From contig OZ024755.1 of the NCBI GenBank assembly GCA_964016885.1, forward strand, positions 8,804,001 through 8,868,000: a DNA stretch of 64,000 nucleotides, given 5' to 3'. Shown one piece after another: positions 5,577 through 49,354 of this stretch. How positions within the stretch are numbered: position 1 is the first letter of the stretch; every line of letters starts with the position of its first letter. The notes below the pieces were generated by a model. The model was not told the DNA's origin. It saw only the letters and a program-made list of their open reading frames with translations, and did not search any database. Both the position numbers and the translations under genes were made by a program. Source of the DNA: Eledone cirrhosa. Lineage: Eukaryota.

Positions 5577-5676
5577 TGAAAACCTTGCTCAAGGACATAA
5601 CACATCGCCCGTTCCGGGAATAGTACTCACAACCACGCGATTGTAAGCCCAACGCTCAAACTACGCAGCCATGCAC

Positions 5677-5680
<4 letters not shown>
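5577..5680 (-). mobile_element. tRNA-derived SINE family B, 5' part
   Basis: Reverse strand AAGGTGCATGGCTGCGTAGTTTGAG...GTGAGTACTATTCCCGG...TGTCCTTGAGCAAGG; matches 26959, 47866 and 60594. Confidence 0.75.
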
Positions 5681-5713
<33 letters not shown>

Positions 5714-6423: not shown

Positions 6424-6492
6424 TACACACACACATATTTATATATATATAATATATATATATATATATAATCATATATATATATATATATA

Positions 6493-6551
<59 letters not shown>

Positions 6552-6559
<8 letters not shown>

Positions 6560-6943
6560 ATGCTTTGGGAGGGTCATGTTGCCAATAGGAACCACACGAA
6601 CCAGTTGCTTTCACTTCAATTTATTATAAATTAAATTTATAAATTTCCGGTTAGCTGGTTGGTTCCACAACCAGACGATTGGTCATATATTGTCACTGAA
6701 GAGGTCACAGAATATGTGACGAAAGAACTTTGACAATATGTGAACAATCGTCTGCTTGTGGAACCAACCAGCCAACCGGAAATTTATAAATTCCTAAATT
6801 TATAAATTTAATTTATAATAAACTGAAGTGAAACAACTGGTGCGTGTGTTTCTTATTGGCAACATGACCCTCCCAAAGCATAACAATATCGGTTTCAACA
6901 CACGTTTTCAGATAAAGAATCTTGCTAAACAAATTCAGAAACG
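6552..6943. mobile_element. Fold-back insert in (TA)n with a hammerhead at the apex
   Basis: Arms 6552-6695 and 6731-6889 are reverse complements. The right side continues 54 bp to 6943. (TA)n on both sides. Confidence 0.85.
6683..6743 (+). ncRNA. Minimal type I hammerhead ribozyme
   Basis: Stem I UCAUAUAUUGUCA/UGACAAUAUGUGA; core CUGAAGA 6696-6702; extra G; stem II GUCACA(GAAUA)UGUGAC; GAAA 6721-6724; minimal stem III AG(AA)CU; predicted cleavage after CUU at 6730. Confidence 0.8.
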
Positions 6944-7436
6944 ATATATATATATATATATAACATGTATACAGGATATATATATCCATCATCAAGATTA
7001 TTAAAAACCGTTCCTAAACACACAACTGTACAGCTGTAATAACAAACAGTACACTCATTGATCTTGACATTTTCTTGAGTGCCAGCCAGACAGAGAGAAC
7101 TGAATTATATTTTTAATTAGTGCAGACGTAATTCCAAACTCCTCTTTCATCTTATTATCCGTATTTCTACTATGTTTACCCTTCGGTTATTTAACTAGAC
7201 AGAACAGTTTTAATAAACTATAATAGAATGATACAAAGAAAACAGGAATAACACCTGGGTAGTTCGATTAATAAACTCACCTCATTATCTTTGGTAATCA
7301 GTGACTAGCACTGATTTGTAGTCTTGCCAACAGATTTCATACGTGATGATTCAGTTAGCAGTAAGTCTTCTTGCCACTGAAAACCATATAAACACAGTAT
7401 AATTGTTTTTTTACATGGTGATGAGACTATCTAAAC

Positions 7437-7998
7437 CTGAGGTTCTGAAAGTCGGCGCTACCGCCTCGCTGAGGATGTTGAGGAAGTCCAAGGGGGGGAA
7501 CTGGAGCCTAATGGGGTGGTAGAGGTCATTAAAGATGATATAATAGTATGTTAAATATCAAATGATACATATTATCGTCAATCGATCGACTTTCGTCAAA
7601 TCGGACCGAGCGAACAATGTTTCCATTGGTCTTTCCAATTGCTAATACTATCTATCGGTCGCAACTCCAGGTAGAAGGAGCATCGTGAAATAAAGTTTCT
7701 TGCTCAAGGAGATAACGCATCAGCCGGTCCGGGAATCGAAATCACAACCTCACGATTGCGAATACAATTCTCTTACCACTCATCCACGCACCTTCACATA
7801 CATATTATATATAAATATATAGAAGTAAAATAAAAATATATATTTATTTATACATAATATATATTATTTTATTCATTATTTATAAATTAACGATTTATTT
7901 ATTATATATTTTATGCTTCATGTGTGGGCAGGTCTCTCTGGAAATAGGTGTAGGAGCGCTGATGGTATTATGTGACCGTAAAACTTTAAGAACCCCTG
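7437..7998. mobile_element. Decayed hAT (Charlie-like) non-autonomous element with nested SINE
   Basis: Left end CTGAGGTTCTGAAAGT; right end ACTTTAAGAACCCCTG (reverse complement CAGGGGTTCTTAAAGT). The 8-bp flanks ATCTAAAC/ACATAGAC partly match. Confidence 0.5.
7677..7796 (-). mobile_element. tRNA-derived SINE family B
   Basis: Reverse strand TGAAGGTGCGTGGATGAGTGGTAAG (A box)...GATTTCGATTCCCGG (B box)...CCTTGAGCAAGAAACTTTATTTCAC. Confidence 0.8.
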
Positions 7999-49164: not shown

Positions 49165-49224
49165 TTTCATTTACCAGTGGTTTCTTGGAAGCAAACAAAT
49201 CTGCTTTCAGTCATCAGAATGAAA
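49165..49224 (-). ncRNA. Type I hammerhead ribozyme
   Basis: Mirror of 49295-49354 with one stem II mismatch; predicted cleavage between 49172 and 49171. Confidence 0.8.
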
Positions 49225-49294
49225 AAATCCTGGTGTTTTTATTTTATTTAAAAACCTGTTTTTAAATCCACATTCAATAAAAACACCAGGATTT

Positions 49295-49354
49295 TTTCAT
49301 TCTGATGACTGAAAGCAGATTTGTTTGCTTTCAAGAAACCACTGGTAAATGAAA
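49295..49354 (+). ncRNA. Type I hammerhead ribozyme
   Basis: UUUCAUU-CUGAUGA-C-UGAAAGCA(GAUUUGUU)UGCUUUCA-A-GAAA-CC(ACU)GG-UA-AAUGAAA; predicted GUA cleavage after 49347; positions 10.1/11.1 are C.A. Confidence 0.85.

Follow-up and report, generated by a model that had tools for sequence, protein, structure and literature searches.

The hammerhead ribozymes of metazoan Penelope-like elements (PLEs), as described in the available part of PMC4209133, are minimal or short-helix-III type I motifs with CUGANGA and GAAA boxes, a 4-bp helix I, a 6-bp helix II, an extra base between positions 9 and 10.1 and a G10.1-C11.1 pair. According to the same text, such hammerheads are inefficient at cutting in vitro, and the function of PLE hammerheads is called unclear in the accessible sections of PMC8557442. 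For the Poseidon element PAc of Anolis carolinensis, the available text of PMC11167929 reports that ribozyme mutants insert normally in vitro and that zero RNA-seq reads begin at the cut; both target strands are extended, there is in that text no sign of cut RNA as template, and two fixed internal RT start sites bound a tail, with a pLTR hammerhead upstream. The endonuclease-bearing elements Pen2, Pen2a and Pen3a of Adineta vaga (PMC3846280 and PMC8557442, both in part) have pLTRs in direct as well as inverted orientation and an optional tail; they show a head-to-head inverted 5'-truncated pLTR, the tail on one arm, the ORF start in the pLTR, microhomology or a palindrome at the junction and an AT-rich or microsatellite target. 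Self-priming fold-back has been proposed for palindromic PLE junctions (PMC3846280, available text), and the Neptune clade is distinguished by a C-terminal GIY-YIG domain after a cysteine linker and by microsatellite targets (PMC8557442, likewise in part).

The window analyzed here (the whole 64,000-nt stretch of Eledone cirrhosa DNA) contains an inverted repeat composed of a left arm of 144 nt (6552-6695) and a right arm of 159 nt (6731-6889). Of the 143 aligned bases, 135 are identical and 8 mismatched; the alignment has two gaps, one of 16 nt, which follows the first 49 bp, and one of 1 nt. The palindrome is a non-chance feature. The 35-nt loop between them (6696-6730) extends exactly from CTGAAGA to CTT, as an earlier, sequence-only reading had claimed for the unpaired centre (CUGAAGA to CUU); its fold is that of a hammerhead core, in which helix II has 6 bp. 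In the family coordinates used below, 0 is window position 6731, the base right after CUU. The parts of the insertion are:

6440-6551, no strand: (TA)n-rich target, left flank (from the sequence; TA runs follow the tail in 30 of 30 loci)
6552-6695, minus strand: inverted 5'-truncated pLTR arm without a tail, from element position +159, a fixed outer end, to 0..+4
6692-6695, no strand: junction microhomology GTCA (4 nt), which is the native 5' strand of helix I and the inverted copy of 6731-6734 (from native context and junction mapping)
6696-6730, plus strand: predicted type I hammerhead core (from sequence, fold and features as in the available part of PMC4209133)
6697, plus strand: core position -34 (U4), the sharpest 5' end of the family by inner-end counts; the window copy ends elsewhere
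6731-6889, plus strand: forward pLTR arm from 0 (predicted cut) to +159, containing the ORF start ATG at 6864 (from the arm alignment)
6890-6943, plus strand: 54-nt tail to about +214, on the right arm only (its 28-nt tail motif has 5,954 exact matches in the 3.0-Gb genome)
6944-6961, no strand: (TA)n target, right flank (from the sequence)

Other repeats were also observed in the window. Another palindrome, about 170 nt long and unrelated to the first (49176-49344), has CTGATGACTGAAAG on both arms and may be a MITE or a further fold-back stub. A 107-nt sequence occurs in two direct copies with 76% identity, one on each side of the hammerhead palindrome (5584-5690 and 7699-7805); both are probably fragments of another short interspersed repeat.

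Judged by its sequence features, the family to which the window copy belongs is an EN+ PLE of the published architecture (RT, C-terminal GIY-YIG and inverted 5'-truncated pLTR). One copy (L019) carries a GIY-YIG domain (PF01541; 22.8 bits, Pfam cutoff 22.6) just before the pLTR, preceded by a C-X4-C-X2-C linker, and another (L293) contains an RT-like PF00078 stretch (E 7e-4, below cutoff), the RT and GIY-YIG evidence being read from different, decayed copies. Sequence extends beyond the tail at 470 places, and in the 23 examined it is an ORF whose ATG corresponds to window position 6864, 133 nt after the cut. Longer copies keep this frame open for more than 500 codons, and L265, L269 and L282 are partial tandems in which the ORF begins within the pLTR. 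The linker, which fits CX2-5CxxC, and the targeting of microsatellites would place the family in the Neptune clade, a motif-based assignment.

Two fixed outer ends were identified, one near +159 (shared by 25 of the 78 arms mapped) and one at +211 to +214, with the tail of 54-55 nt between them. Among 183 head-to-head pairs, 126 combine a tailed arm with an arm that stops near +159, the tail being carried by either arm (65 vs 61), and arms on both strands are present in 25 of 47 loci picked regardless of their junction. These features are those of the Adineta vaga elements, although the tail is longer here (54-55 vs 30-40 nt), the junction here makes use of hammerhead helix I, and the inner-end distribution mapped below has no counterpart in the available text of PMC3846280 and PMC8557442. 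The two outer ends bounding the tail and the hammerhead upstream of them likewise resemble PAc; the ORF starts at helix II in PAc vs 133 nt after the cut here, and the available text of PMC11167929 reports for PAc no 5'-end peak inside the core such as that seen here. The window copy is a head-to-head pair of 5'-truncated pLTRs and represents a real, ordinary PLE stub.

Further features were noted at other loci of the family. A 986-codon open frame (L292:1696-4653) lies directly upstream of a long truncated family copy, and we take its start to resemble a LINE endonuclease. A tandem array with a 46-nt period (G000:C1:132947043-132947570; L284-L291) is built from the junction between the element's tail and ORF start. 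In ORF-bearing copies (among them L277:2137-3021 and L268:2344-3021), the N-terminal region of the ORF contains in-frame low-complexity stretches rich in Asn and Gln, which resemble the N-rich inserts of Adineta vaga Penelope elements described in the available part of PMC3846280.

The predicted core of the window copy consists of CUGAAGA (6696-6702), an extra G, helix II (GUCACA/UGUGAC), GAAA, a 2-bp helix III and the CUU triplet (6728-6730). By sequence and fold, the following parts of the PLE variant of the type I hammerhead are present (CUGANGA, GAAA, NUH, helices I and II, the extra base after A9 and G10.1-C11.1), and the core positions are nearly invariant among the arms compared. It differs from the hammerheads in the available part of PMC4209133 in its helix III loop, which is AA and non-palindromic, and in being a purely predicted motif. 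The palindromic helix III loop of the dimeric fold is absent: AGAACU is complementary to itself at only 4 of its 6 positions, the remaining two being A-A mismatches. An Rfam scan of the window gave no hammerhead among the 150 matches listed of 223 at E<=1, and the hammerhead copies of the family are too uniform for covariation analysis.

The native helix I of the family is 4 bp long, GTCA (-39 to -36) being paired with TGAC (0 to +3). The native sequence leading into the core reads ...ATCCCCA-GTCA-CTGAAGA, and of the 30 best loci, 27 have ...CCCA-GTCA at this place; the same upstream context was also found in four contig-only runs, which cannot reveal RNA ends. The stem I of about 145 bp proposed earlier is a property of this rearranged copy, where it includes a 16-nt bulge, and not of the native motif. 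The GTCA/TGAC word is a general slippage point of the family, and deletions or duplications of 12-14 nt between its repeats recur within the ribozyme (L154, L161, L164, L168, L169 and L191; L167, L189, L196, L221 and L250; L307, L311, L316 and L320).

The four bases at 6692-6695 (GTCA) belong equally to both arms, forming a 4-nt microhomology with five possible breakpoint registers (6731-6735). Since the native stem I pair GTCA/TGAC is itself the junction's microhomology, the breakpoint is unplaceable within this interval. The left arm is indeed an inverted copy (135 matches), as had been stated, but its supposed exact start at 6731 dissolves in these four bases. Once a join is made at stem I, the loop automatically equals the core and the arm automatically seems to start at the cut. 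An untailed cDNA that ran off a hammerhead-cut RNA after CUU and then annealed at helix I, leaving a footprint of in vivo cleavage, would produce the same sequence, so the window copy taken by itself is compatible with a cut template. The near invariance of the core in the arms compared fits this alternative, whereas the unplaceable breakpoint and the 2-bp helix III with its non-palindromic AA loop count against it, as do the poor in vitro cutting of similar PLE hammerheads (PMC4209133) and the dispensability of cutting for insertion (PMC11167929), each in the available text. On the whole, we consider a cut template unlikely.

A genomic footprint of cleavage, modelled on the 5' ends of R2, would be an excess of copies beginning right after the cut, irrespective of the partner joined there. 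Among 3,340 arms anchored at +11 to +26, 2,903 read through the whole ribozyme and 437 are without native bases at -44 to -41. The inner-end map covers 146 of these 437, namely those at the head of the list by genome order, minus two near-identical duplicates and the 52 entries at its end; subtraction of 41 internal indels and 4 duplicates left 101 ends, located between -40 and +11. Three of the 101 are at 0 (1.9 expected, P 0.31; 1.4 expected when the peak is left out, P 0.17) and 9 are in -1 to +4 (8.4-11.7 expected), so the peak after CUU that the sequence-only reading had anticipated in the truncation and inversion points did not appear. The position with 17 of the 101 ends is -34 (corrected P 2e-9), and the interval -38 to -32 contains 38 ends against 13.6 expected.

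Genome-wide, the pattern for an end at 0 gave 26 matches, of which 15 are internal indels and 9-10 are true ends. A control site at -14, with the same four terminal bases, gave 21 matches, 17 of them true and 8 with the same anchor (10-12 after correction). Raw anchor recovery by pattern was 10, 30 and 25 of 59 arms, and the cut was therefore compared with the control on the shared anchor, yielding 9-10 vs 10-12 ends (P 0.64). The pattern at 0 omits stem-I joins; when the 5 with that anchor are added, the counts become 14-15 at the cut vs 11-15 at the control. Arms ending at the cut constitute about 0.3% of the anchored arms, near background, and these counts would accommodate a modest excess at the cut, up to about 1.5-2 fold, or a minor share of cut templates.

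Because the ends of the family peak 34 bases upstream of the cut and are at background level at the cut itself, the palindrome is no evidence of RNA cutting and is not a cleavage footprint. The run-off of a cDNA at a ribozyme-made 5' end, and with it the proposed record of self-cleavage in vivo, finds no support in the distribution of ends (3 of 101 at 0 vs 17 at -34), in the similar genome-wide counts at the cut and the control, or in the 2,903 of 3,340 anchored arms that read through. The slight surplus at 0 (3 ends vs a background of 1.4) leans toward cut templates but is not significant.

In the genome as a whole, 91 pattern matches to an end at -34 were obtained by raw count, about 4 of which resemble 1-nt indels by eye. 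Of the mapped ends at this position, 8 have TA flanks and 10 have diverse inverted partners, and they are shared by the two subfamilies and found on arms with as well as without a tail. Scaled up, they correspond to about 54 of the 3,340 anchored arms (about 1.6%), roughly 12 times background. We suggest tentatively, and with more doubt than confidence, that the copied RNA has a defined 5' end, or the RT a hard stop, between C3 and U4 (-34) and not at the canonical cut. Candidate sources are (i) a transcription start in the core, (ii) non-canonical scission and (iii) an RT block by the folded or dimeric (paired) ribozyme. Zinc-dependent cleavage in the hammerhead core has reportedly been published, with C3/U4 as the site. 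A transcription start at -34 would give transcripts without C3 and helix I, which would therefore be unable to cut.

Other sources of the -34 peak were rejected. Microhomology to (TA)n does not account for it: 10 of 18 ends are joined to diverse inverted partners, and a TA-like 6-nt word at +5 to +10 has no peak. A single master copy is unlikely, both subfamily variants and both outer ends being represented. Inspection of 105 ends by eye gave no repeated same-strand join to a GT donor of the kind expected from splicing at the AG that precedes -38. None of 23 ORF-continuing copies ends at -34, a sample too small for a rate of 1-2%.

A broad cluster of 5' ends was also observed at -112 to -90 (e.g. 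L024, about 1430-1450), comprising 11 of 78 arms and 11 of 66 partner arms. It is located just upstream of and across AAGATGGCG, presumably a YY1-type site, with an ETS-like CCGGATGT further upstream, and it is a candidate for the main transcription start region. The literature searched, which lies outside supplements (among them Fig. S2 of PMC11167929, which may bear on this point) and subscription papers, contained no earlier map of junctions or 5' ends relative to PLE hammerheads.

The stem-I join of the window copy recurs in the genome. An exact 22-mer for this join was found at 6 places, of which 5 are true and one is a look-alike, and the addition of L071 and L331 brings the known copies to 7. 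Look-alike joins to the tail (L031/L324 and L323) were removed from the set. The sequence shared by the stem-I copies ends at the element edges, and their outer ends and subfamily alleles differ; four of them (L032, L034, L071 and L331) carry the tail on the arm with the core, whereas L033 has it on the opposite arm. Since the alleles and the tailed arm differ, at least several of these joins are independent, while the like-shaped L032, L034, L071 and L331 may possibly reflect re-mobilization of one stub.

A set of 41 head-to-head junctions with short loops (30-90 nt between two anchors) was mapped on a reference copy whose minor allele at -17 makes ends at -16 appear too numerous; later maps were made on L024. 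The junctions fall into 36 different classes, and 17 have inserted bases. The stem-I class (0|-39) is the commonest, with 4 of the 41, and three other classes occur twice each. Microhomology is favoured at the junctions in general: 4-5 nt are present in 9 of the 24 insertion-free junctions, although only 9 of 1,393 possible classes have at least 4 nt. Of the 8 junctions sharing at least 4 nt, 4 belong to the stem-I class; with 9 such classes possible, this gives P 0.007, or about 0.07 when corrected for their number. Both microhomology classes that involve -39 were seen: (0|-39) occurs 4 times and (-15|-39) once, with two near-variants from one 21-kb region. In one pattern search (14 matches), the cut-side arm was joined to the GTCA of helix II (0|-27) 3 times, vs 6 times for (0|-39); the cut-side word therefore also pairs with partners outside the hot zone.

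The concentration of junctions in the stem-I class (commonest among short loops, 7 copies overall) and the 3 additional joins that end at 0 through helix II GTCA are the best support for the cleavage reading. The recurrence of the stem-I join is nevertheless best explained by microhomology beside the -32 to -39 hot zone.

In our view the palindrome was probably made from two cDNAs, started on opposite (TA)n strands and then annealed to each other through the 4-nt helix I complement GTCA/TGAC, with no need for cut RNA. The joining of two cDNAs through stem I complementarity, already proposed from the sequence, gains support from the 4-nt microhomology and from the occurrence of the same join in 7 copies. 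The element protein would nick both strands of the TA run and prime two cDNAs, at +214 and +159. The tailed cDNA would halt in the -35 to -39 shoulder, and the last four bases at its 3' end would pair with positions 0 to +3 of the other cDNA; overhanging bases, if any, would be trimmed and the gaps filled, both cDNAs having been copied, in this scheme, from the same source RNA or locus. For two-strand priming and two internal start sites there is an analogy in vitro in another PLE (PMC11167929, available text), and we infer the cDNA stop, the annealing, the trimming and filling, and the common source. The arms of a pair are discordant at 9% of subfamily-diagnostic sites, vs 44% for random pairs, and so both cDNAs would usually come from one source. 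LINE-1 twin priming also involves two cDNAs from opposite target strands and a microhomology join. The twin-primed pieces of LINE-1 5' inversions are adjacent, non-overlapping parts of one RNA, whereas in the present copy the two arms begin within one and the same pLTR segment and overlap, which yields a palindrome.

The high concordance of the arms (91% at subfamily-diagnostic sites) would also follow if a single cDNA had stopped at -36 to -39, folded via the helix I complement and copied itself back. Such self-priming leads directly to a loop that equals the core, and the core-bearing arm does end in the hot zone of the family. However, in L033 the cut-end arm is tailed and the core-bearing arm untailed, an arrangement impossible by fold-back copying, and the stronger 6-bp fold-back at helix II was seen in 0 of 41 junctions. 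L035 (G000:C15 near 10,578,762) is a four-piece insertion in which a stem-I join links two subfamilies, the joined arms differing at 4 of 6 diagnostic sites; this suggests two template RNAs in one event. Two cDNAs are favoured over fold-back because of this discordance in L035 and the tail on the short arm in L033, and we regard self-priming as a decidedly improbable origin.

An origin at the DNA level, by replication template switch at a short inverted repeat, as a MITE-like foldback transposon or as an assembly artefact, receives almost no credence from us. Replication template switch could start a palindrome from a 4-bp inverted repeat with 35 nt between its halves. Yet the left arm stops at the fixed +159 with neither tail nor flank copied, the arms differ by 8 substitutions and two gaps, the palindromic form is represented by 7 known copies amid thousands, and long members carry RT and GIY-YIG. 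A MITE or foldback DNA transposon was rejected in particular: the inner junctions vary (36 classes among 41) and long copies encode RT. Formation from two cDNAs joined at the helix I complement is the reading that we retain.

A true genomic footprint would have been the first in vivo sign of cutting by PLE hammerheads; the window copy is unsuitable for that role, and the counts for the family limit cut templates to a small share. The -34 end at U4 provides a precise, single-base target for 5' RACE and in vitro extension assays. If the tentative reading of this end is true, the hammerhead would set the 5' boundary of the pLTR by a route other than canonical self-cleavage.
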